This document shows, in pieces, positions 38,344-61,742 of a DNA stretch of 64,000 nucleotides. Every line of letters begins with the position of its first letter. Position 1 is the first letter of the stretch. This DNA comes from Promethearchaeia archaeon (GTDB lineage Archaea; Asgardarchaeota; Lokiarchaeia; Sigyniarchaeales; SOKP01), in contig JAHQWJ010000007.1 in the NCBI GenBank assembly GCA_029856125.1, positions 1 through 64,000 on the forward strand, read 5' to 3'. Below the pieces are notes generated by a model that worked only from the letters and a program-made list of their open reading frames with translations, was not told the DNA's origin and did no database searches. The position numbers were made by a program, and so were the translations under genes.

Positions 38344-38490
38344 CTTAAATGGGATCATTTAACCTTCTATTTAAAGATCACGATTATGAAAAAAAGGTAA
38401 AAAGTTTAGTAATAATAAACATCATTTAAAAATACTTAAAAACCTAAATTTCTATAATCTTTCAATAATTATATTTCATTGGAGTTTGAG

Positions 38491-39243
38491 ATGAAGTTAC
38501 ACTCACTTTTTATTTTAACTAAGGCGGGAGCTTGCCTATACAGCAGGAATATTACAGAACATTTTGAGAATATCGAACCAAATCTGATAACACCCTTTTT
38601 CTCGGCTATTTTTTCCTTTTCTGAAAGCGTTATTTCTAAAGAAACGCCCGAAGTCCTCGAAATGGGCGGTTTTAGAATTGTTTTCAAGGTAGAAGGTGAG
38701 CATATTTACGCGCTTTTAGCCGATACAAGTGCTAATATTTTGTATATTAACTCTAGATTAGCGAACATTATTCAAGTATTTAAAGAATTCCTCGAGGATA
38801 ATGTTGTTGAAGATTACGAGGAAATCCATAATAGCGAATTTGATGCAAAAATTGTTTCCATTATTAAAGGGGACGATGAGTTATCTTCAAGCCAACCATT
38901 ATATAAAAAGATAATCGATCTCATTAAACGATTGACTCTTGAAAACGAAATTCTAGGCGCAGGATTATTTACTATAAATGGAAAGATAATTTTTACATCC
39001 TTACCACAAGATATTTTATTGTCCTCACTAAAAGAATTAGAAATCAGACATATTGCAAACACTGAATACTCTTTAACATTTTATAGTTTGGAGAACAATC
39101 AAAAAGTATTTTCAAGAATAATTGATATTCCTTGGAAATTAGATCCCTTGTTGATCGTTGTGTTATACGAGTCTTCAGTCCCTCTTGGTATGTGTGAAGT
39201 AAATTTAGAAAAAATAACAAAAACAATTCAAAATATCATTTGA
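38491..39243 (+). CDS. Longin + roadblock-like two-domain protein
   Basis: LHSLFILTKAGACLYSR..LITPFFSAIFSFSE (longin); ILGAGLFTINGKIIFTSL (roadblock/profilin-like). Confidence 0.7.
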   Translation: MKLHSLFILTKAGACLYSRNITEHFENIEPNLITPFFSAIFSFSESVISKETPEVLEMGGFRIVFKVEGEHIYALLADTSANILYINSRLANIIQVFKEFLEDNVVEDYEEIHNSEFDAKIVSIIKGDDELSSSQPLYKKIIDLIKRLTLENEILGAGLFTINGKIIFTSLPQDILLSSLKELEIRHIANTEYSLTFYSLENNQKVFSRIIDIPWKLDPLLIVVLYESSVPLGMCEVNLEKITKTIQNII

Positions 39244-40600: not shown

Positions 40601-40771
40601 TTTTTTTTGGAATCATTTTGATTTTATTTGTGTGTAAAATATTTTATTATTATTTTATTTGTGACAACAGAACAGAAAAATCCGAAAAACTTCCCATTTT
40701 TATTACCACACTTTTACGTTGTTAATATAATTTAATTTAATTTTCTTTAAAAAAAAGACATAGTGATTATA

Positions 40772-41263
40772 ATGGCTTCAGACTATAGCGTAATTTGTAA
40801 ACTTGGAGGATATGTGAATTCTAATCCAGAGATTATTAGCTCCTATCCCTCGCTAGATCAGTCATTAGAAGCAGAAATCCTTTCAAAATGCTTTCCCTTG
40901 GGCTCAAAATATGGAGAATTCATTGTAGAAAAGCATCGTAAATATAGCGTGTTATCGTATGTTTTTAGGATCAATCAAATAGCAGAAAGAGATGATCTTT
41001 TCTCATTGTCGGTTTTATTAAATAAAAGAGATAAAACTGAGATATATATGCCAGTTTTGAAAAGCTTGATAGATAAATTGGATGAAAATAATATACTAAC
41101 TCAAGATATTCTAACTGAATACCAAAAGGTTATATTTGAAGGGATTAACCAAGAACAAGATATTGACATAGAAAATGTGTTAATAGATTTCTCGAACATT
41201 TTTAAAGAAATTAAATCGAAAATACTTAAAGAGAAACCAGAATTAAAAGGGAGTTTTTTATAA
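40772..41263 (+). CDS. Stand-alone uDENN/longin-like protein (cassette 1, gene A)
   Basis: PEIISSYP...EILSKCFPLG matches the uDENN P-x-I-x3-YP...CFP-x-G pattern; paralog at 53432. Confidence 0.6.
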   Translation: MASDYSVICKLGGYVNSNPEIISSYPSLDQSLEAEILSKCFPLGSKYGEFIVEKHRKYSVLSYVFRINQIAERDDLFSLSVLLNKRDKTEIYMPVLKSLIDKLDENNILTQDILTEYQKVIFEGINQEQDIDIENVLIDFSNIFKEIKSKILKEKPELKGSFL

Positions 41264-41923
41264 ATGGCTGAAGATTTATTTTTACACGGGCTGGAAAACA
41301 TTGGATATCTATTGAATGTTATTATAATCCCCTTGGCAACGGTTTTAGTAGGGAGGAAGCTTTTAAAGGAGAAAAAGGCAACTGGAAAATTAAATGATAT
41401 TCGTGCTATAATCTTCTTTGTATTCTTTAGTTTTTCAAACCTAGTAATACTAGAATTTCTCATCGGAACTCAATTTTACGATACAACAACAAGAGCATTT
41501 CTAGCAAGTATATTTGGTGGAACCCTTGATGTTTTTAATGTCTATTCATTTGTAATTGGAATCATCGCATCGTTAGGTCTGATGATGGTCGCTGTAGCAA
41601 ACAGATGGGACTTTTTGCAGTATACTTCTATGTTCTTCTTCGGAGGAATGATCCTACTATATACCTTTACTGGCTTCCAAGCATTTTTAGCGCCTTACAT
41701 ATATTTTGCAGGAGGTGCAAGCATAGTTTTTCTGTATCTAACAGCATTTCGTGTAAAAGATAATGGTGCTTTAGCACTGGCTATATTTTTTACTCTCGCC
41801 TTTGGCACTGTCATTGTTGATGTAGCTATGATCACAGGATTTGGCGTAATAATATACAATGGTGTGATCCTAATCTTTTCATTAGGATTGTTTAAACCGT
41901 TTAAAAAGGAGGTTATGGCTTAA
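41264..41923 (+). CDS. 7-TM membrane protein (cassette 1, gene B)
   Basis: Seven hydrophobic segments; ATG directly after upstream TAA; paralog at 53935. Confidence 0.75.
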   Translation: MAEDLFLHGLENIGYLLNVIIIPLATVLVGRKLLKEKKATGKLNDIRAIIFFVFFSFSNLVILEFLIGTQFYDTTTRAFLASIFGGTLDVFNVYSFVIGIIASLGLMMVAVANRWDFLQYTSMFFFGGMILLYTFTGFQAFLAPYIYFAGGASIVFLYLTAFRVKDNGALALAIFFTLAFGTVIVDVAMITGFGVIIYNGVILIFSLGLFKPFKKEVMA

Positions 41924-41924
41924 A

Positions 41925-42575
41925 ATGGCGGAAATTGGCTTTTTAGTCGTTGAAATCATTTATTTTATATTTGGTATATTAACGATCTTGAAGACTATGA
42001 AAAATTGGAAGTTGAATAAGAATAGGATGCTTCTTACCGTAACTGTCTATATTTCTTCCATTCTTGTGAGATCTATTATTGATATGGGTGTTTATGCCTC
42101 AGGTTTTGATATCGATATTACAGTAGCGGGGGGGCTTGATATAGGTATGATTATGGGATTCATATTATTTACGATTCAACTTGAATTTATGTTTTATTTA
42201 ATGGATTTACCCAAATTATACACGCTTCCAGTTATTATCACTACTTATCTAATGATGGGAAGAATCTTAGTTGATTCGAGTATACCTTTTATTATATATG
42301 CTATGATAACTGGTTATGGATCCGCGTTCTTTCTTATAAAAGATGGAAGAAAAAGTCGTAATGGATTAGCTATTGGAATGGGTTTGTTCTTTCTTTTTTG
42401 GGGTCTCGGATCTACCTTCCAAATTGAAATTCTATTTGTCTCTTTGAGATTAGTTGCAATGATAGCACTCTTTCTAGGAACAAAAGGTTTTTATGAGAAA
42501 TATGTATTCGTCAATGTCGAAGAAGAGCAGAAAATAATGGGAACCTGGATTGCAAAATTGGTAGTAAAGGAATAA
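41925..42575 (+). CDS. 7-TM membrane protein with conserved cytoplasmic tail (cassette 1, gene C)
   Basis: Seven TMs; GRKSRNGLA loop; tail EEQKIMGTWIAKL; paralog at 54581. Confidence 0.75.
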   Translation: MAEIGFLVVEIIYFIFGILTILKTMKNWKLNKNRMLLTVTVYISSILVRSIIDMGVYASGFDIDITVAGGLDIGMIMGFILFTIQLEFMFYLMDLPKLYTLPVIITTYLMMGRILVDSSIPFIIYAMITGYGSAFFLIKDGRKSRNGLAIGMGLFFLFWGLGSTFQIEILFVSLRLVAMIALFLGTKGFYEKYVFVNVEEEQKIMGTWIAKLVVKE

Positions 42576-42839
42576 TAACGATTTTTTTTATTTTTTTCTT
42601 ATAACGTTAATTCTATTTGGAATATCAACAAGATTTTAATCTAATTTTAGCTTTGTATTTTTATTGTTAATTCATTTTATTCTATTGATAAAAAGGAAAA
42701 TAAACGCAGCAAAAAAATAATTCTGTGGCAACATAACAAACAAAAGAATAAATAATTTCGTTTTTAACTGTAAAGTTATACTATATTTTCAAGATATAAT
42801 TTTAAGTATTTTTCATAAAATAAATTAAAACTGAGCAAA

Positions 42840-43736
42840 ATGGGAATTAAAGATATTTTAAAACGAGTATTTACCAAAGAAAAAAAGATTGTTATAACCG
42901 GGCTTGACAGTGCTGGCAAAACGACCATGATTAGCTTCCTACAGAATGGAACTTTCATGGAACATGCACCAACGATGGGCAAAGAGTTATCTCAAATTGA
43001 AGTTCAGGGAATTCGTATAAATGTTATGGATATGGGTGGGCAAAAGGATTTCAGAAGTTTATGGGTTGGAGAAGCCTCGACTGCTGAGTGTGTAATATTT
43101 ATGATCGACGCATATGCTCCAGAAAGATTCAACGAAGCTAGAAACGAGCTATGGAAATTATCTTCTATTTTTAAGAAGAAACCCTTGATAATATTAGCAA
43201 ATAAGTACGATTTGCAACCGGTTGCATCAATTAGTGAAATTATCGAAGCTTTGAATTTGAAAGATCTACCCTCTTTTGAAGTATTACCGATTTCGTGTAA
43301 AACTGGGTATGGAATTGTAAAAGCATTTATGAAGATTTATTACAAATTGACTGGCCAGCTTCTAACCCAAAAGACAAACCTTCGAGCGATTACCGTTTTT
43401 GATCAAGGGGGAATTCCTTTAACGTCATCTTCAAACGAAGATATATTACAAGGGGGATTATTTACCGCCATCAATAATTTTGTAAGAGAGTCTTTTAATT
43501 CAGAACTCGATCAACTTAAAATGGGAGGACATCTTATCCTCTTCAAACGATCTAAACATCTTATGGGCTCAATAGTAGTTAGTGAAAACGACAACATTGA
43601 TATCCAAGAAATAGAATCAGGATTAAATGATTTATTGCTCCATTTAGAGCACATGTGCCCTGAGCTCGAGAAAGATCAATTAAATTCTAGTAAAATTGAG
43701 TATTTAGTGGAACAATACGCTTCAAATCTGTTATAA
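42840..43736 (+). CDS. Arf-like GTPase fused to C-terminal longin domain (cassette 1, gene D)
   Basis: MG-amphipathic helix, GLDSAGKTT, PTMG, DMGGQ, NKYD, SCK; then ITVFDQGGIPL..GLFTAINNFVRE longin. Confidence 0.9.
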   Translation: MGIKDILKRVFTKEKKIVITGLDSAGKTTMISFLQNGTFMEHAPTMGKELSQIEVQGIRINVMDMGGQKDFRSLWVGEASTAECVIFMIDAYAPERFNEARNELWKLSSIFKKKPLIILANKYDLQPVASISEIIEALNLKDLPSFEVLPISCKTGYGIVKAFMKIYYKLTGQLLTQKTNLRAITVFDQGGIPLTSSSNEDILQGGLFTAINNFVRESFNSELDQLKMGGHLILFKRSKHLMGSIVVSENDNIDIQEIESGLNDLLLHLEHMCPELEKDQLNSSKIEYLVEQYASNLL

Positions 43737-43855: not shown

Positions 43856-46213
43856 TTATTTATTACTGAATTTCTCTAATAAACCTTTTTGAAGCTTATC
43901 TATTGACTCTTTAATGGTATCAATAAAAGGATTAATCTCTTTCCCAAGATCCGGGTTAATATCAATTGCTTTTTCGAGGTTTTGAAGTGCTGAATGGTAA
44001 TCGTTCTTATCTAAATAGGCATAGCCCATAAAAAACCAAGCAGTCGCATAATTCGGATCTATTTCTGTTGCTTTTTTATAGGATTCAATTGCTACGTCAT
44101 ATTGTTCCTCGTGTTTATAAGCATTTGCCAAATTATAATGTGCTAAAGTATAAGTGGATTCAAACCCAACCGCTATTTTATAAGAATCTATTGCTTGATC
44201 AAATTGATCTAATTTTTCGTAACTAAAACCCATGTGGTTCCAAGCTTTTGCGTGGTTCGGATTGAGATCGATGGTTTTTTTGAAGTACTCAATCGCGGTA
44301 TTATAATCTTGTTTCTCGTTATTTGCAATGCCAATGTAGTAATAAGCGTCGATATAAGTGCTATCTAATTCTATCGCTTTATTACAATCTTTGATAGCGG
44401 TATCGTAAGATCGTTTTTCAATTTCTAATTTCGCTTTTTCTATCAACTTTAATCTGTATTCGTATTTTATAGCGATGCGATTTTTAAATTCTGGACTTTT
44501 TATTGAATCGTTAATGTTAATTGCATTTTCAAAGTTTTTGAAGGATTCACCAAAATTGGTACTTTCTGCTAGTTGGACGCCCTGTTCGACTAGTAGTTTA
44601 ATTTTAGAATAAAATACCTCGTCAATGGATTTCTTGATCAGCTCCATCTCTTGAAATCTACGCGTAGGGTCATCTATTGTTTTTGCGTAATCCATTTTTT
44701 TATTTAGTTTATCTAACTCCTTTTCAAATTTTTGGAGTTCTTCAGATAAATCCCCACGATCTACTAAATCTTTTAATTCTGCTTGATACACCAGCCCTTT
44801 TATTTTATTAATTTCTTCTTCCATTTCTTGCGTTAAGTACATTTTATTAGTTCCTTCTAATGCTCTATTAAAGGTTTTAATAGCTTCGTCGTAATTTTTG
44901 TTCGCCAACTTATCATTTCCTTCCCTAACAACTTCCTCTATTTGAGCCAAATACACTTTGTTGACTGTATTTTTTAAATCTTCTAAGTCTTCGTTAGTTT
45001 CCTCAGAGATTGGTAGTCTTTTTGCTATGCTAATTGCTGCATATAGATCATTAATAGCCTTTTCGTAGTCTCCTTGCCCAATTTTTTGAATAGATTTCTC
45101 TTTAATAAATTTGATCCGAATTTTGCACGTATTATTAATAGATTTAGTTATTTCACTTAAGGTTTCGCTCTTCTCGTTTGAATCAGCCATTTTTTCTGCC
45201 AATTCTAAGGACTTGTCGAAAAAATCTAATGCATCATTCACTACAGCTATATTTTCTTCAAAGTTATCTTTAATTGTTAGTTCTTTTCCTTTATTAAGGA
45301 TAGGATTAATTTTCTCCAAATAAATTGGATTTAGCACTACTGATGCCATTGAATTGATTCTTTGTATTTCTGATTTCTTGTAATCCGAATCTACCATTTT
45401 TTTAGAAATACCTATAGCTTCTTTGTATTTTTTAGTAGCGTCCTCGAAAGTGTTTTCTTCATATCGTTTTTTACCGTCTTCCATGATAGCATTTATTTTC
45501 TCTGAGTATAATTGATTGCTCAAATTAATTGAATTCTGTTTATCCGTGTGTTTTAATTCAGAATCAAAATATTTATCCACTATCTTCAAAGCCTGCTGGA
45601 ATTCTTCAAGGGCTTTATCTAGATTACCAATTTCTTTAAATTGATTAGCTTTTTCAATCACAGCGGAAACTTTTAATGAAAAAGTTTGATTAATAGTATC
45701 TTCAATTTTTTTTATCATTTGATCTTCTAAATCTTCCATGTAAAAATCTTTTGCAGCGTCTAGTGTGTCGTATAACATGCCTATGGCTTTATCTAGCTCT
45801 TGTTTATTCTTCACTAGGATGGCTTGATAGAGAGATTCTTCGATCCTTGTTTTATTTATCAGATAACTAATCTCTTTGACATCATAATCTTTCATATCTT
45901 TATCTACTATCTTGTCAGCAATTCTCGCTGCTTCGTCGAAAGTGTTGAAAGCAGAACCAAAATCTTTATCTATTATGAAAGTTCTTGCCTCGTCAATAAT
46001 ATCTATGATTTTAACAGAATATATTTGATCTATTTGGGATTTAATGTTTCTTATTTCATCCTTGCGCTCCTCTGGTTCTTTAACTCTCTCTTCGACGAAT
46101 CTTAGAGCTTCTAAATACTTTTCGACAGCGTCATTGTATTTTTTAAGATTTTTAAATTCATTCCCTTCTTGCATGATGGAATTAAGTTTCTTTAAGTCAG
46201 ATTTCTTTACCAT
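43856..46213 (-). CDS. Large TPR / alpha-solenoid protein
   Basis: Canonical TPRs at C-terminus (AWNHMGFSY, AHYNLANAY, AWFFMGYAY); degenerate helical repeats before. Confidence 0.88.
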   Translation of the reverse strand: MVKKSDLKKLNSIMQEGNEFKNLKKYNDAVEKYLEALRFVEERVKEPEERKDEIRNIKSQIDQIYSVKIIDIIDEARTFIIDKDFGSAFNTFDEAARIADKIVDKDMKDYDVKEISYLINKTRIEESLYQAILVKNKQELDKAIGMLYDTLDAAKDFYMEDLEDQMIKKIEDTINQTFSLKVSAVIEKANQFKEIGNLDKALEEFQQALKIVDKYFDSELKHTDKQNSINLSNQLYSEKINAIMEDGKKRYEENTFEDATKKYKEAIGISKKMVDSDYKKSEIQRINSMASVVLNPIYLEKINPILNKGKELTIKDNFEENIAVVNDALDFFDKSLELAEKMADSNEKSETLSEITKSINNTCKIRIKFIKEKSIQKIGQGDYEKAINDLYAAISIAKRLPISEETNEDLEDLKNTVNKVYLAQIEEVVREGNDKLANKNYDEAIKTFNRALEGTNKMYLTQEMEEEINKIKGLVYQAELKDLVDRGDLSEELQKFEKELDKLNKKMDYAKTIDDPTRRFQEMELIKKSIDEVFYSKIKLLVEQGVQLAESTNFGESFKNFENAININDSIKSPEFKNRIAIKYEYRLKLIEKAKLEIEKRSYDTAIKDCNKAIELDSTYIDAYYYIGIANNEKQDYNTAIEYFKKTIDLNPNHAKAWNHMGFSYEKLDQFDQAIDSYKIAVGFESTYTLAHYNLANAYKHEEQYDVAIESYKKATEIDPNYATAWFFMGYAYLDKNDYHSALQNLEKAIDINPDLGKEINPFIDTIKESIDKLQKGLLEKFSNK

Positions 46214-53270: not shown

Positions 53271-53431
53271 ATAATTTAATACTAACCGTTTGTAGATGCG
53301 ACTTAGGTCTTAATTTACAATTTCGGTAAACTTAAATTTAAATAATTAAACTTTTACTATTTATTAAATCGCTATTAGGTTAGGGGTAATAGCTAAGGAT
53401 TAAGAATTCTAATTAAAGCAATACCATTTTT

Positions 53432-53935
53432 ATGATTGAAAATACAGAACGGTATATACTATGTAAATTAGGAGGTTTCGATTTATCTAATCCAGAGATT
53501 GTCATCTCCTATCCTACTCTTGATCCTACCCTCAGCGAATCAGAGGATTTACTTTCTAAATGTCTCCCAATAGGTATTAATAGTGGAGATTTTTCAGTTA
53601 GCAAATATAGTAAGTGTAATGTTTTGTCATATGCATTCAAAATAGAACATGAAGAAGAAAGAAACGATTTATTAACAATTTCTATTCTTTTAAAGAAAAA
53701 GTTAAATGTTGATGTTTACAAACCAGTTTTAGAGAACATTATCTCTACATTGAAATATTGCGACCTGCTAACTGAAAAAATTTTGGCAGATTATATTCAA
53801 ACTATTTATAATGGTATTAATGAAGAAAAATTAATATTGATCGATGGTGTTCCTATCGATCTATCAATCATTTTTAAAGAGATAAGATCAAAAATATTTA
53901 AACCAAGACCTGAAGTAAAAGGGAGTTTTTTCTGA
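53432..53935 (+). CDS. Stand-alone uDENN/longin-like protein (cassette 2, gene A)
   Basis: CKLGG..SNPEIVISYP..LLSKCLPIG; ends EVKGSFF like paralog ELKGSFL. Confidence 0.6.
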   Translation: MIENTERYILCKLGGFDLSNPEIVISYPTLDPTLSESEDLLSKCLPIGINSGDFSVSKYSKCNVLSYAFKIEHEEERNDLLTISILLKKKLNVDVYKPVLENIISTLKYCDLLTEKILADYIQTIYNGINEEKLILIDGVPIDLSIIFKEIRSKIFKPRPEVKGSFF

Positions 53936-54588
53936 TGTTAGGACAAGCAGTTGATATAATAGAACTTATGGCAAATTATCTTGGAATTATTATTATTCCA
54001 ATTATGACGATCATTTTGGGTAGAAAAGTGATTTTAGAAAGAAGAGAAATAGAAAAGCTTAATATGATTAGATTTATTATTTTTTGCATTTTCTTAACGC
54101 TTTCCTGGATGCTAATATGGGAGTTTATTTATGAAAGCACACCGCTCGGTGATGTTCTCAATGTAGAATTAATAATCTCAATTAACACATTTTCGTTTTA
54201 TAGTTTTGGCTTAGGATTAATGATCACTCTAGCTATATCAATGGTGAGTTATACAAATCGATGGGAGTCGCTATATTACATATCCTTTTTTATATTCGCA
54301 GGAATGTTTATCGTATTTTTGTCAACAGAAATATCTATTTTTCTTCTTCCTTATGTTTTTGCGGGTGGAGTAATAGCAGTTGTGTTTTTATTTGCTACTG
54401 GGTTTAAATTTAAAGATAATAGCTCATTAGGGCTGGCTATCTTTGCTACTCTCATTTTTCCAACCCTAATAGCAGAAAAAACGATAGTTGGACAGATGTT
54501 AAGTTTAATATATCCTATTTTTGGGTTAATTTTCGCCCTCGGTTATTTCAAATTATTTAAAGCAAAGGTGGTTGAGCAAAATGAGTGA
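53935..54588 (+). CDS. 7-TM membrane protein (cassette 2, gene B)
   Basis: TGATG overlap; shares IIIP..T..GRK, NRW..L.Y, KDN..L.LAIF with 41264 paralog. Confidence 0.75.
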   Translation: MLGQAVDIIELMANYLGIIIIPIMTIILGRKVILERREIEKLNMIRFIIFCIFLTLSWMLIWEFIYESTPLGDVLNVELIISINTFSFYSFGLGLMITLAISMVSYTNRWESLYYISFFIFAGMFIVFLSTEISIFLLPYVFAGGVIAVVFLFATGFKFKDNSSLGLAIFATLIFPTLIAEKTIVGQMLSLIYPIFGLIFALGYFKLFKAKVVEQNE

Positions 54589-55228
54589 TTTACCAATATT
54601 TTTATTATTAGAAGTTGTTTTTTTGGTTTTTTGCATCGTTACAATACTGATTATTCTCAGAACATACTTAGAGATTAGGGAATCTATTTATCTTGGATTA
54701 ATGGTTTTCTTTGCTGCAATGCTTTTTAATTCACTTTTTCGGATTATTAATCTATTCATTACACTAGATTTGACTGTCGGAGTCAAACTAAGCTCATCTA
54801 ACATTATCGCCCTATTAATTTTCAGCATTCAACTGCGATTCTTCCTTTATTTAAAAAAACTAATAAAATTATATTGGCTTCCATTAGTTGCCAGTTTCTA
54901 CATAGGTTTTGGGCTAATTGTAAATGCTTCTCTAATATTTTTTATCTCTTATGCTGTAGTGATCGGTTTTGTTATTCCTGTCATACTATTAAGAGAAGGC
55001 AGAAAAACACGTAACGGTCTTGCCGTTGGACTTGGAATATTCTTTCTAATATATGGACTAAGTAAAATGCTTCAAGTTCCATTCGTACCTGAATTATTAA
55101 GAATTATCGGAATAATTATCTCCACTTTAGCAGTTTTAGAGTTCTTTGATAAGTATCTTTTCTACGATAAGGAAGAAAAAGAAAAAATTCAGAACGCTTG
55201 GATTTCAAAACTAACTGATAAGAAATAA
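54581..55228 (+). CDS. 7-TM membrane protein (cassette 2, gene C)
   Basis: Overlapping start; IQL.F..YL..L.KLY.LP, GRKTRNGLA, tail EKEKIQNAWISKL. Confidence 0.75.
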   Translation: MSDLPIFLLLEVVFLVFCIVTILIILRTYLEIRESIYLGLMVFFAAMLFNSLFRIINLFITLDLTVGVKLSSSNIIALLIFSIQLRFFLYLKKLIKLYWLPLVASFYIGFGLIVNASLIFFISYAVVIGFVIPVILLREGRKTRNGLAVGLGIFFLIYGLSKMLQVPFVPELLRIIGIIISTLAVLEFFDKYLFYDKEEKEKIQNAWISKLTDKK

Positions 55229-55405
55229 AAGGATTCTATGCAAAATAGATAAATTTTTACACTATTCTTTGACTTAAGTTTAAATATAAAAACTCTTACT
55301 ATTTAGTTAAGCTCTATGGTCTAAGGGATAAGGGACATGGAAAAAATTTTTTTGTGTTCAAATCACTCGCTCTAAAAATTATTAAAATAACAGATGTGAG
55401 AAATA

Positions 55406-56305
55406 ATGGGTGTTAAAAATATTTTGCATAAACTTTTCGCTAAGGAAAAAAAAATTGTAATCTGTGGGTTGGATAATGCAGGAAAAAGCACTTTAGTAAG
55501 CTTTCTCCAAAATGGAACTTTTGTTAAGCACACTCCTACTATGGGAAAGGATTTAACTAAATTAGAAGTTCAAGGTATTCCTATAAATCTTATGGACATG
55601 GGTGGTCAAAAAGATTTTAGAGATATGTGGTTAGGAGAACTCTCAAACGCATCATGTGTAATTTTTATGATAGACGCTTACGCCCAAGAAAGATTTAACG
55701 AAGCGAAAGACGAATTATGGAAACTATCTTCAGTTTTTAAGAAGAAACCATTAATTGTATTAACAAATAAGAACGATATGACTCCAGTAGCTTCCGCGGG
55801 CGATATTATAAAAGCGCTGGACTTGCATAAAATTGATACATTTGAAATACTTCCTATTTCCTGCAAAACGGGATATGGTATTGTATCAGCATTCACGAAA
55901 ATTTATCACAAACTTACTGGGAAACAGTTAGGTAATGCAGTAACTCCTAAGGCAGTAACAGTTTTTGATAGGGGAGGAGTCCCATTGACATCTTCTTCCA
56001 ATCAAGATATCTTGCATGGCGGTTTATTTGCTGCTATTACTCAATACGCTAAAGAGTCTTTTAACTCTGAACTAAATCAAATTAGACTTGAGGGTAATAT
56101 TATCCTTTTTAAACGGACTAACCACCTAATGGGATCGATAGTTCTCAGAGAAGAGGATAGTGAAATGATAAAAGAAGCAGAAGTAGGATTAGGTGAATTG
56201 CTTTCACATCTTGAACATATGTGCCCTGAACTTGAAAAGGAGCAAACGGATGCTAAAAAAATTGAGTATTTAGTCGAGCAATACTCTTCAAATCTTATGA
56301 ATTAA
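55406..56305 (+). CDS. Arf-like GTPase-longin fusion (cassette 2, gene D)
   Basis: MGVKNILHKLFAKE, GLDNAGKST, DMGGQ, NKND, SCK; C-terminal longin; close paralog of 42840. Confidence 0.9.
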   Translation: MGVKNILHKLFAKEKKIVICGLDNAGKSTLVSFLQNGTFVKHTPTMGKDLTKLEVQGIPINLMDMGGQKDFRDMWLGELSNASCVIFMIDAYAQERFNEAKDELWKLSSVFKKKPLIVLTNKNDMTPVASAGDIIKALDLHKIDTFEILPISCKTGYGIVSAFTKIYHKLTGKQLGNAVTPKAVTVFDRGGVPLTSSSNQDILHGGLFAAITQYAKESFNSELNQIRLEGNIILFKRTNHLMGSIVLREEDSEMIKEAEVGLGELLSHLEHMCPELEKEQTDAKKIEYLVEQYSSNLMN

Positions 56306-57795: not shown

Positions 57796-58371
57796 TTATT
57801 TAATTCTTTCATACGCCCATTTTGCTTTATCATCTAAACCTAAGGCTTCATATGCCTTTCCAAGGAAAAGAAATCCCTCGGGATGGTCGTATTTTTCTTT
57901 TACTAATTTAAATAACTGATTAATTGCCAGATCATAACGACCTCTCACGTAATTAATCTTACCTTTTAAAAATAAAATATCTTGCCCCTTTTGGATTGAG
58001 TTACTACCGTTATTATGTAAGTCTAACCGTGATAAAGCGTAGTCATACTCTTGTTCGTTAATTAGAATATCAATGGATTCGATAAACTTTAGAAAGGACA
58101 TTTTCGAGGCAATTACTTCCATTTTTTTTAACTCTTCTGTTTTGAGTTCGTTATTTAATGCTGTCAGCTTCTCCTCCTCTCTAAGTTTTATAAAATCTTT
58201 GAACTTGTCAAGCACTCCGTTTGAATATGGAGCTCTACATAATGGACAATTAGAAGAATGAGGTAACCACTCCTTCAAACAATCAGTATGAGCCGAGTGC
58301 CCATTAGGACAATTTTGAACCGAATCTACGCCTTCAATTATACCCAAATGACAAATTATACAACTAGCCAT
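57796..58371 (-). CDS. RING-H2 finger + TPR protein (putative E3 ligase)
   Basis: CIIC...CPNGHSAHTDCLKEW...CPLCR; C-terminal TPRs (LFLKGKINY, FLFLGKAYEALG). Confidence 0.85.
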   Translation of the reverse strand: MASCIICHLGIIEGVDSVQNCPNGHSAHTDCLKEWLPHSSNCPLCRAPYSNGVLDKFKDFIKLREEEKLTALNNELKTEELKKMEVIASKMSFLKFIESIDILINEQEYDYALSRLDLHNNGSNSIQKGQDILFLKGKINYVRGRYDLAINQLFKLVKEKYDHPEGFLFLGKAYEALGLDDKAKWAYERIK

Positions 58372-58474
58372 CTCAATCAGAAAACTATTTAATAAATTAT
58401 AAAATTATCACTTTTAAGTATATGTTGTTTTTAATAATTCACTCTAATATATTCGTATTACCCTTGAATTTATT

Positions 58475-60040
58475 ATGTCAGTAAATAAAAAGCGATTGTT
58501 CAATGAGCTCCTAACAAAATTTTTACTAGCGTATGAAGATGTGGATGCTCTGATTGTATCTGATCATGAAGGACTTATAATTGCTGGGCAAAAAAGAGCA
58601 TCTGTGGACATGGAATTGGTATCTGTTTTAACAGTTTTAATCAATCCTCTTTTAGAAAGAATTAGAGAAGAATTTGCTTTCAAAAAATTTGGATCAGCTA
58701 GCTTTGACACCGAAAACAATCGATTGTTGTTTATATCTATTGACGAGAATATAACTCTCAGTGTTGTATTAGATACACTATCATCCATTGATAAAATTAG
58801 CCCATATGCCTATTTTTTGGCAGAAAAAACAGCTCAAATTATTTATGCTGGAGAAAACGATAACATTCAAGTCTCAATACCCAACTTCGACACAGAATCC
58901 GAAAGCTTAAAGGAACCCGATAGAATAAAAGATCAAATCTACCAATTGCGTTTAGATTCAGGGGGGATCTATAAATTTAAATTTATAATCGTAGGTGACA
59001 AAGCTGTTGGAAAATCTTCGATTGTAAGGAGATTTGTAGAAAATAGATTTTCTCTTGATTATAGGTCTACTCTTGGCTTAAATGTTCTCTCTCATTCATT
59101 AGGATTCTACGGAAATGAAGTTTACTTTTCACTTTGGGATGTAGGTGCGCAGGAATATTTCAAACGCTTTAGAAAAACTTATTATATAGGCGCACAAGCT
59201 GCTTTCATCGTGTTTGATGTTTGTAAAAGAGATACCTTTGCAAATGTGAAAGTATGGTATAAAGAACTAGAAGATTTTCTCCATAAAAAAAATATACCAA
59301 TTGTAATTGTAGGTAATAAAATAGATTTAGCAGATCAGAGAAGTGTAGAGTATAAAGAGGGAATTGAGCTAGTCGAAGAGCTTACCAAAGAAAGTGTTGA
59401 AAGTTATTTCTCGTATATTGAAACCAGCGCATTAACCGGCGAAAATATCGAAGATGCGTTTAGTTTAATTGCTTACCATTACATAATGAAGAGTAAAGAG
59501 AGGGAGGAGCAAAGATTAAAAGAGAGCTTAATGGATCAAATCAATTCGATATTAGAGAAAAGAGGAAAATTAACCATCTCTTTTATTACTGAAAATCCAT
59601 ATTGGAGCCCAGGATTGCAGATTCTAAATGATGTTAATACATTATGTGAGTGTGAAAAACTAATAGATGATAAAGATAAAAGATTGTATAAATACTCCAA
59701 TGGGCTAATTATTAAGAATTTTTTATTCGATAACTTAGATGTAAAAGATTCTGATAGCGTATTTGTAATATTCGACGCCAGAAAAAAAACACACATCGAG
59801 CAAAAATGGAAAGATGTAGTTGTGAACATTATAAGCAATTTAAAGGAAAATAAAGTAGCACTAATTGGCGTGAGAGTATCAGATGAGACTGATTGGTCTA
59901 ACATAATGGAAGAATTTAATGTTAATCAATTCCTAGAGAAGAAAATGGTATCTCTTTTGTTTTTTAAGATTGGCTTCGAGTATAGGCTGGAAATATATGA
60001 TCAACTTGATGTAATGTTTAGTACAATTACAAACTTATGA
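58475..60040 (+). CDS. Roadblock domain - Rab-like GTPase - degenerate GTPase-like domain
   Basis: DVDALIVSDHEGLII roadblock; GDKAVGKS, WDVGAQ, GNKID, ETSAL; C-terminal SDSVFVIFDAR. Confidence 0.85.
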   Translation: MSVNKKRLFNELLTKFLLAYEDVDALIVSDHEGLIIAGQKRASVDMELVSVLTVLINPLLERIREEFAFKKFGSASFDTENNRLLFISIDENITLSVVLDTLSSIDKISPYAYFLAEKTAQIIYAGENDNIQVSIPNFDTESESLKEPDRIKDQIYQLRLDSGGIYKFKFIIVGDKAVGKSSIVRRFVENRFSLDYRSTLGLNVLSHSLGFYGNEVYFSLWDVGAQEYFKRFRKTYYIGAQAAFIVFDVCKRDTFANVKVWYKELEDFLHKKNIPIVIVGNKIDLADQRSVEYKEGIELVEELTKESVESYFSYIETSALTGENIEDAFSLIAYHYIMKSKEREEQRLKESLMDQINSILEKRGKLTISFITENPYWSPGLQILNDVNTLCECEKLIDDKDKRLYKYSNGLIIKNFLFDNLDVKDSDSVFVIFDARKKTHIEQKWKDVVVNIISNLKENKVALIGVRVSDETDWSNIMEEFNVNQFLEKKMVSLLFFKIGFEYRLEIYDQLDVMFSTITNL

Positions 60041-60179
60041 AATTTTTTATTCTATATTAGTGAGTATTAGCGTGGATAGTTTATATTTTCAAATAACTAC
60101 TTTTAAAAGCAAGTTAAATTATATTATTGATAAGAACATTTTCTGCTTGATCCAATTCAAAAATGTGTGGTGTATCCAC

Positions 60180-61742
60180 TTGTCAATTAATAGAAAACGA
60201 CTATTCGACGAGATTCTTAACAATTTTCTAGAAAGATTTTCTGATGTTGAAGCAATTATCGTTTCAGATCATGAAGGTTTCGTTATCGCCGGAGAAAAAA
60301 GAAAAGACACTGAAAGTGATCTAGAAATCGTATCAGTGTTGACGACTCTGATAAATCCCGTTTTAGAAAGAATAAGAAATGAATTTGCCTTCAAGAAATT
60401 TGGAACTGCTTCGTTCGACACGGATGAGCATCGCTTAATGTTTATTACAATTGACGAAGAAAGAATTTTAAGCATAATTTTTAATAGCATGGCATCAGTT
60501 GAAAAAGTTGCACCATATACCTATTTCTTAGCTGAGAAAACTGCTCAAATACTTAATTCTGGTGAGGATGATACACTTCAATTAGTGATTCCTGATTTTG
60601 ACTCTGATACAGAAAGGCATGAAAAGCTTAAAGAATCTATTTGTCAATCAGAAATCGATGATTGTGTAAATTACAACTTTAAATTCGTTATTATAGGAAA
60701 CCACGAGGTAGGAAAAACTTCTCTAATACGACAATTCGTAGAAAGAAAGTTTTTGCACGATTATCGAGCAACCATAGGATTAAACATTTTCGCTCATAAT
60801 TTTGACTTTCAGGGAAACGAAATTAGTGTCCAACTCTGGGATATAGGTGCGCAGCAATATTTTAAAAGGTTTCGCAAGATATACTACAACGGTGCAGAAG
60901 CGGCCTTTATTGTCTTTGATATTACTAACAGAGAATCATTTGGGAAAATCAAAGATTGGTATAAAGAGATTAATCAGCTCATTGATGAAACAAATATCCC
61001 TATAGTTATAGTGGGGAATAAAGATGATTTAGCTGGACAGAGAGTAATATCCACAGCTGAAGGCGAAGCATTAGCAAAATCTTTGTCAGAAACCGGGTTG
61101 TCCTATATAGAGACGAGCGCTTTAACTGGAAGTAATGTCAAAGACGCCTTTGAATTAATGGCGTACCATTATATCATTAAAAGTAAAAAAAAGGAAAAAG
61201 ATCAAATCCAGGAAAGTCTAACAGAAGCAATAATTTCAACGTTAAAAGAGCTTATTATATTAGAATTAACGTTTATCACGGACGATTTTAATTGGAATCC
61301 CGGATTCCAGACGATCGTAAATTTAGAGAAATTAGGCGAATTCTCGAAGTTAAAAGACAACCACAGCGAAAAACTATATCCCTACAAAAATGGGTTGATA
61401 ATAAGTAGTTATATGTATGACGAATTCAACCTCTCTAATTCGGATGGTGTTTTTATCATCTTTGACGCTCGAAATAAGGAGCACATTGATCCAGAATGGA
61501 AAAATATACTTATGAGGACAATCAAAAAGATAAGAAAAAAACGAGCTGTTATTGTAGGGCTTCGAGTTTCCGACGATAAAAACTACCCACAATTGATGGA
61601 TGAATTTGTTATCGACAATGATTTAGAAGAGAAAATCGTATCAGTTCTCTTCCTCAAAATTGGTACCGACTACAGAGAAAAAATGTACGATCACCTTATA
61701 CTCATGTTAGAACTTATTGTTAACACGAGAAAATTAAAATAA
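60180..61742 (+). CDS. Roadblock - Rab-like GTPase - degenerate GTPase-like domain (tandem paralog)
   Basis: TTG start at 60180 aligns with paralog (MSINRKRLF vs MSVNKKRLF); GNHEVGKT, WDIGAQ, GNKDD, ETSAL. Confidence 0.85.
   Translation: MSINRKRLFDEILNNFLERFSDVEAIIVSDHEGFVIAGEKRKDTESDLEIVSVLTTLINPVLERIRNEFAFKKFGTASFDTDEHRLMFITIDEERILSIIFNSMASVEKVAPYTYFLAEKTAQILNSGEDDTLQLVIPDFDSDTERHEKLKESICQSEIDDCVNYNFKFVIIGNHEVGKTSLIRQFVERKFLHDYRATIGLNIFAHNFDFQGNEISVQLWDIGAQQYFKRFRKIYYNGAEAAFIVFDITNRESFGKIKDWYKEINQLIDETNIPIVIVGNKDDLAGQRVISTAEGEALAKSLSETGLSYIETSALTGSNVKDAFELMAYHYIIKSKKKEKDQIQESLTEAIISTLKELIILELTFITDDFNWNPGFQTIVNLEKLGEFSKLKDNHSEKLYPYKNGLIISSYMYDEFNLSNSDGVFIIFDARNKEHIDPEWKNILMRTIKKIRKKRAVIVGLRVSDDKNYPQLMDEFVIDNDLEEKIVSVLFLKIGTDYREKMYDHLILMLELIVNTRKLK

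Follow-up and report, generated by a model that had tools for sequence, protein, structure and literature searches.

What does a very small protein do when its gene stands, twice over, at the head of the same set of genes? The window analyzed here, a 64,000-nucleotide stretch of DNA from an Asgard archaeon, one of the closest prokaryotic kin of eukaryotes, holds two copies of such a gene, A1 and A2 (Table 1). Each is first in a set of four: A, the membrane proteins B and C, and D, an Arf-family GTPase that carries a C-terminal extension in both cassettes. The two A proteins are 50% identical (E 1e-52), and they are the only copies in the genome. The suspicion that two copies simply reflect contamination of the genome bin was rejected, as both lie on one contig and two cassettes also occur in other genomes. 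Where homologs of A carry a source name, this is Promethearchaeota/Lokiarchaeia or another Asgard group.

The first-pass annotation described A as a minimal uDENN-like protein that heterodimerizes with a longin fused to the Arf. The analysis below leads in part elsewhere: A is probably a GTPase-activating protein (GAP) of the longin type represented by NPRL2, FLCN, and SMCR8, reduced to a single domain and predicted to act on the ArfR GTPase of its own cassette. When Asgard proteomes were searched for Arf GEFs and GAPs, none were found (Zhu et al., 2025; PMC11914678). Native Asgard Arf regulators, in the words of that study, remain to be established (PMC11914678).

Table 1. Features of the two cassettes, in positions of the window
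Feature	Position	Strand	Basis or remark
TGT-N9-ACA motif upstream of A1	40660..40674	+	3 genome-wide sites at <=1 mismatch, 2 of them in cassette 1
A1, stand-alone NPRL2-type longin, candidate Arg-finger GAP	40772..41263	+	163 aa ORF
Arg73 codon of A1, beta4-beta5 loop	40988..40990	+	equivalent of NPRL2 Arg78
AAAAGGGAG, Shine-Dalgarno-like site for B1 inside the K-G-S codons of A1	41245..41253	+	anti-SD, position, codon bias
B1, 7TM membrane protein	41264..41923	+	begins directly after the A1 stop codon
C1, multi-pass membrane protein, distant B paralog	41925..42575	+	hydropathy, profile match to B
TGT-N9-ACA motif upstream of D1	42724..42738	+	conserved ~100-125 nt upstream of D
D1, ArfR-type GTPase with C-terminal longin/roadblock-like domain, predicted A substrate	42840..43736	+	PF00025, E 2.6e-34
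A2, second copy of A	53432..53935	+	167 aa ORF
Arg77 codon of A2	53660-53662	+	ER.DL Arg of second copy
AAAAGGGAG in A2, SD-like site	53917-53925	+	same bases as in A1
B2, 7TM	53935..54588	+	39% identical to B1
C2, multi-pass membrane protein	54581..55228 (start 54581 or 54590)	+	36% identical to C1
D2, ArfR-longin	55406..56305	+	67% identical to D1

The fold of A and its arginine

The AF2 model of A1, built from a 102-sequence alignment, has a pLDDT of 90.6. Its elements run beta-beta-alpha-beta-beta-beta-alpha-alpha, the order of a longin, after which come a helix, then a hairpin, another helix, and a disordered tail. The longin fold on which the first-pass annotation had staked its proposal is present in the model. 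The longin, together with a single hairpin, a single helix, and the tail, takes up all 163 amino acids, and the cDENN and dDENN lobes are absent.

Which longin is this? In three structure searches with the A1 model, NPRL2/Npr2 came first among known proteins. Foldseek matched A1 to NPRL2/Npr2 with E 1.1e-5; VIA aligned 143 residues with NPRL2 (Z 14.4, rmsd 3.0), placing model residues 2-152 on residues 6-163 of the chain; and the Atlas search gave NPR2 at TM 0.73. Other VIA matches included yeast Npr2 (Z 13.1), FLCN (9.4), and DENND1A (8.6), with the range from DENND1A to DENND10 spanning 8.6-10.4. Thus, the term "uDENN-like" survives only in its broad sense. The protein is a longin of the DENN/FLCN/C9orf72/NPRL2 group, but within that group it lies closest to NPRL2, whose longin is of the GAP type, and further from the uDENN lobe of DENN GEFs (Z 14.4 versus 8.6).

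Searches by sequence were also made. With profiles of A1 and A2, the PDB returned designed-helix noise only; the profile of divergent members (A3) had human NPRL2 as its top PDB sequence match, with a modest E of 0.005. Pfam scans of A and of its 57- and 102-member alignments gave nothing above cut-off. The profile check against uDENN, run with Pfam PF03456, found no match for A1 or A2 and faint ones in two of the 102 members (best E 5e-4, below cut-off). The PF06218 scan of the genome found no match, but its controls were blank too. Longer fused forms of A were sought and none found, which counts for little, and A has no profile similarity to the longin of D. By its modelled fold, then, A is an Arg-finger longin of the NPRL2 type that stands alone and lacks DENN lobes. 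It does not belong to the DENN-domain proteins, and it has the fold and the arginine of the catalytic subunits of longin GAPs (NPRL2, FLCN, SMCR8).

The sequence motifs that had been read from the two copies are all there. CKLGG, SNPEI..SYP, and LSKC(F/L)P.G occur in A1 and A2 alike, and the ER.DL and C-terminal motifs are found as ER(D/N)DL and PE(L/V)KGSF(L/F). The importance that had been assigned to the arginine of ER.DL was upheld. R73 is conserved in 97 of 102 homologs, whose mean identity is 28%; only two structural prolines are more conserved. It sits between beta4 and beta5 in the AF2 model, and when the divergent A profile is aligned with human NPRL2, its equivalent falls on residue 78, counting from Pro17. 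Arg78 of NPRL2 is the catalytic residue (the GAP finger) of GATOR1 (PMC10316081). An arginine between beta4 and beta5 has been proposed as a mark of longins of the GAP type, among them monomeric Arf GAPs like Avl9 (10.64898/2026.01.05.697756). At the position of the GP motif before beta2, A1 has N18-P19, which keeps the proline; some distant members have GP, and Heimdall-type members have GL.

Several relatives of A have been remodelled. Derivatives without the arginine (L160, L161, P0093) have gained an N-terminal Cys/His (zinc-ribbon-like) domain and kept KGSFF. In L075, the C protein carries a C-terminal fusion of a domain similar to this Cys/His domain (blastp E 8e-10), and the C proteins of L081, L156, L157, and L162 are extended likewise. 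Other relatives, of 250-262 aa (P0161, P0163, P0166, P0167, L118), have a C-terminal winged-helix-like extension, and resemble the published Asgard NPRL2-like architecture. Three Heimdall-labelled genomes (G232, G123, G233; loci L113-L134) have 6-8 A paralogs each, many in A-ArfR-7TM triplets or A-7TM pairs; this is a lineage-specific expansion of the module.

Genetic linkage and the C-terminal tail

The GTPase encoded with A1 has Gly2, an amphipathic-looking N-terminus, and Gln68. The top PDB match of D1 is the Asgard protein GerdArfR1 (8oun, E 1.9e-27), and the best three are all Asgard ArfR structures. From these matches and the N-termini, D is assigned as an ArfR-type GTPase. Its tail gives a weak Fuz_longin_1 match in 8 of 24 cases. 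The co-oriented GTPases next to A fall, with moderate support (92/83), in one Arf-like group apart from 47 of the 48 other small GTPases of this genome; the exception, inside the group, is a long-branch GTPase without an A neighbor. D1 and D2 have their own A apiece.

The AF2 model of B1 is a seven-helix bundle (pLDDT 91). VIA aligns 186 of its residues with ADGRL3 (Z 15.3, rmsd 3.6), while Foldseek is not significant (E at least 0.03). GPCR folds make up nearly all of the best 50 VIA matches, in a search where helical bundles score high by chance. The predicted fold of B may be called GPCR-like. Profile comparison indicates that B and C are distant paralogs (hhalign E 1.7e-5 over 113 columns). 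No profile similarity was found between B/C and the 7TM family of Heimdall-type cassettes, and the membrane partners of A may therefore differ in ancestry across lineages. One related locus (L006:3754-4254) has a B shortened to 166 aa, by a possible frameshift or assembly error.

Does the association of these genes persist? Of 23 close loci, 22 have D some 2 kb downstream of A; in the remaining locus the contig ends early. At 20-35% identity the linkage outlasts rearrangement, with orders such as D-A-B-C and A-TM-D-D, and with double cassettes in tandem or divergent arrangement. Behind A in the Heimdall-labelled lineages come a stand-alone Arf of 174-189 aa without a longin and a different 7TM family. 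Of the 67 divergent A copies with enough flanking sequence, 38 lie within 2 kb of a co-oriented small GTPase (the background in this genome is 3.2% of ORFs), and a member of these 7TM families accompanies 48; none of the six Arg-less copies has a GTPase neighbor, all of these counts being descriptive because the loci are related and kin are not independent. An adjacent GTPase is also missing from 23 of the 61 Arg-bearing copies. The gene for A is, then, genetically linked to ArfR and 7TM genes across the Loki- and Heimdall-group Asgards.

The cassettes may also share regulatory elements. Among the relatives (L001-L023), a TGT-N9-ACA motif precedes D in 19 of the 22 loci with a D gene, and in several it precedes A as well. 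The 21-bp match between the regions upstream of A1 and D1 is, by itself, 17/21, below the shuffle maximum of 18; conservation across genomes carries the support for a motif that is possibly a shared operator or promoter element. In cassette 2, an element unlike that of cassette 1 recurs upstream of A2 (53330-53366) and D2 (55272-55308); it is 25/30 identical (shuffle maximum 21) and unique in the genome.

Further genes of interest lie nearby. A protein with a longin (Fuz_longin_1, E 0.001) and a roadblock-like domain (38479-39243) is encoded two genes before cassette 1, a position conserved in most relatives. A TPR protein of 785 aa (43856-46213) is convergent with D1 and keeps its position in most relatives. 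Near cassette 2, at 57796-61742, a RING-TPR gene is divergent from two tandem roadblock-Rab-like GTPase paralogs.

The first-pass annotation held that the bases encoding the end of A double as the Shine-Dalgarno (SD) site of the next gene, and the evidence bears this out. The 3' end of 16S has the anti-SD CACCTCCT, and the GGAG of AAAAGGGAG ends 10 and 9 nt upstream of the next gene's ATG, inside the genome-wide GGAG peak. Among the tails of 32 homologs, 22 encode the Gly by GGG (genome 14%), and 27 of 27 Ser codons are AGT or AGC (genome 31%). Given this bias, the SD constraint is real, and K-G-S is in part dictated by the nucleotides.

The "conserved C-terminal KGSF(L/F)" is indeed in both copies, but it is specific to a clade: KGSF is conserved in the Lokiarchaeia-type subfamily only, and Heimdall-type A ends in D/E-x-W. 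Being clade-specific and partly driven by the SD, KGSF was rejected as a universal functional motif. It was rejected equally as a mere SD artefact, as GxF(F/L) is kept, encoded by non-SD codons (GGT CAT), in loci whose B carries an SD of its own; the hydrophobic end is therefore also a feature of the protein. A 7TM neighbor accompanies 46 of 52 copies with a hydrophobic tail versus 2 of 15 without one, counted over the 67 divergent copies, whose loci are related.

Contact with the GTPase and the competing readings

The first-pass annotation had proposed a model of A with the longin of D; the complex modelled here was A1 with full-length D1, GTP, and Mg. Contact with D was predicted, but the confident interface is at the active site of the G domain. 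The complex scored 0.76 (best control 0.00). This passes a mark that 58 of 80 solved complexes reach, against 2 of 110 mismatched pairs, and that is rough here, where own alignments and a ligand were used. The score leaves GTP out, and the geometry from the arginine to the gamma-phosphate is outside its reach. Contacts agree 98% between runs, and the partner pLDDT is at least 86. Structures of the GATOR1-Rag and C9orf72-SMCR8-Arf1 complexes are already solved, of course, and the pass may therefore reflect likeness rather than binding.

From D, the P-loop contributes residues 23-24 to the confident interface, switch I residues 41-49, and switch II residues 68-74, among them the catalytic Gln68. 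On the side of A, the interface comprises 11-19, 41-47, 64-66, and 73-76, R73 included. These stretches hold the LGGxxxSNP loop (11-19), FPxGSK (41-47), and RDDL (73-76), and this placement suggests a reason for the conservation of LGG..SNP, FP.G, and R.DL, which the first-pass annotation had already picked out. The link that had been drawn between A and gene D is in this way supported by gene linkage and by predicted contact on the GTPase domain. No residue of the D longin is in the confident interface, which speaks neither for nor against its contact with A.

With fold, residue equivalence, and linkage computed, A is predicted to bind D and, as a GAP, would act on it catalytically. Here, A would dock on the P-loop, switch I, and switch II of GTP-loaded, membrane-bound D. 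Arg73, supplied in trans beside Gln68, would speed GTP hydrolysis; D would return to its GDP state, and the Arf would leave the membrane. More tentatively, the flexible hydrophobic tail (GxFF or DxW) might tether A to the co-translated 7TM proteins, which might let a membrane sensor set the place or timing of Arf inactivation. The known eukaryotic longin GAPs all hold their substrate with a second longin or a cDENN lobe, and A has neither. This was counted against the GAP reading, together with NP in place of GP, the Arg-bearing copies without an adjacent GTPase, and the modest E of the NPRL2 sequence match; with these points weighed, the reading still stands as the probable one.

Could A instead pair with the longin fused to D, in the manner of C9orf72 and SMCR8, and so regulate the attached Arf? 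Eukaryotic longin GAPs are longin heterodimers (PMC12290439), and the tail of D is longin/roadblock-like. Further, one genome (L144:3373-4200, minus strand) has an intact 275-aa fusion in which the whole A longin, arginine included, runs in-frame into the D longin at the orthologous site. However, 5.8 billion clusters contain this fusion only once, and it looks like a deletion that took out B, C, and the G domain, which are missing there. The G domain already accounts for the confident predicted interface. In Heimdall-type cassettes, moreover, the Arf paired with A is longin-less, so the D longin is a dispensable partner. The proposed heterodimer is thus not required and is unlikely as the main activity of A, although, as an accessory contact, it would be compatible with the GAP model, and the single L144 fusion leaves room for this.

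Much the same low likelihood attaches to a non-catalytic A, an effector or adaptor that binds the switches of GTP-Arf and couples it through its tail to the 7TM proteins. Effectors, too, bind switch I and switch II, the link of A to 7TM genes is closer than its link to a GTPase (48 versus 38 of 67), and the hydrophobic tail goes with the 7TM neighbor. Such an adaptor, however, leaves unexplained why the best-conserved surface residue is an arginine exactly at the position of the NPRL2 finger. An A that activates D, as a longin GEF of the DENN or Mon1/TRAPP type, is more improbable still. Many longins are GEF subunits, of course, and the faint uDENN matches and the DENND1A and DENND10 fold matches point the same way. 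Yet A has no cDENN or dDENN lobes, which carry the GEF activity in DENND1, the fold match to NPRL2 is clearly better, and the beta4-beta5 arginine marks GAPs rather than GEFs (10.64898/2026.01.05.697756).

Relation to known systems

The GAP reading places A near several known proteins. Like NPRL2/Npr2, the catalytic subunit of GATOR1/SEACIT and a GAP for RagA/B, A has a longin followed by a helix and a beta-hairpin (2-152), an arginine at the equivalent of position 78, and the proline of the GP motif. Unlike NPRL2, it is a single domain of 163 aa without the NPRL2 C-terminal domains, has NP for GP, sits in an operon without an NPRL3 or DEPDC5 partner, and is linked to an ArfR rather than a Rag GTPase.

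The C9orf72-SMCR8-WDR41 Arf GAP is recruited by the 7TM transporter PQLC2. This complex and FLCN-FNIP share with A, as read here, a longin arginine finger directed at an Arf-family GTPase and an associated seven-helix membrane protein. They are, however, longin-DENN heterodimers with a WD40 adaptor, whereas A has no DENN core, and the best fold matches of B are GPCRs. Membrane sensors that control a GAP are also known in plant 7TM-RGS1 and lysosomal LYCHOS/GPR155-GATOR1. In each, a seven-helix protein regulates a GAP; the likeness to the cassette is one of analogy only. LYCHOS is among the fold matches of B (Z 10.2). Avl9 and DENND6A, both monomeric Arf GAPs (10.64898/2026.01.05.697756), have the arginine between longin beta4 and beta5, as does A; they bind the switch regions through a cDENN, while A, lacking one, is predicted to use its longin alone.

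Asgard NPRL2-like longins are themselves not new. They are reported by Liu et al. (10.1101/2020.10.19.343400), and Asgard longins with an Arg finger and a GP motif have been proposed as possible GAPs for ArfR or Rag (PMC12290439). These NPRL2-like and FLCN/SMCR8-like proteins belong to the same broad class, and to the same organisms, as A. As far as the available portions of both papers go, the architectures described are a longin with a C-terminal domain, two-component fusions, and a Roadblock-Rab-DENN operon; neither a stand-alone longin-ArfR-7TM cassette nor a specific partner is named. A literature search, mainly of open-access main texts, found no description of the A-B-C-D operon. The cassette adds to this class a minimal candidate longin GAP whose gene is coupled to those of an ArfR and of 7TM proteins.

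The cassette offers a candidate native Arf regulator in the form of a small, soluble pair (163 aa and a 172-aa G domain) with one residue to mutate. Because it names a specific pair and a single residue, the questions of native Arf regulators and of longin-GAP targets become directly testable. If A is a GAP, chemistry of the GATOR1/FLCN/C9orf72 type would predate the origin of eukaryotes, and control by a membrane sensor possibly would as well. A more speculative and doubtful proposal is that the whole cassette is a receptor-controlled G-protein module, in which a dimer of GPCR-fold B and C would bind the GxFF tail of the longin GAP and so gate a membrane-binding Arf. Were this true, the cassette would be a prokaryotic forerunner of systems of the PQLC2-C9orf72/SMCR8-Arf and LYCHOS-GATOR1 type, and longin GAPs would have begun as monomeric Arf GAPs.
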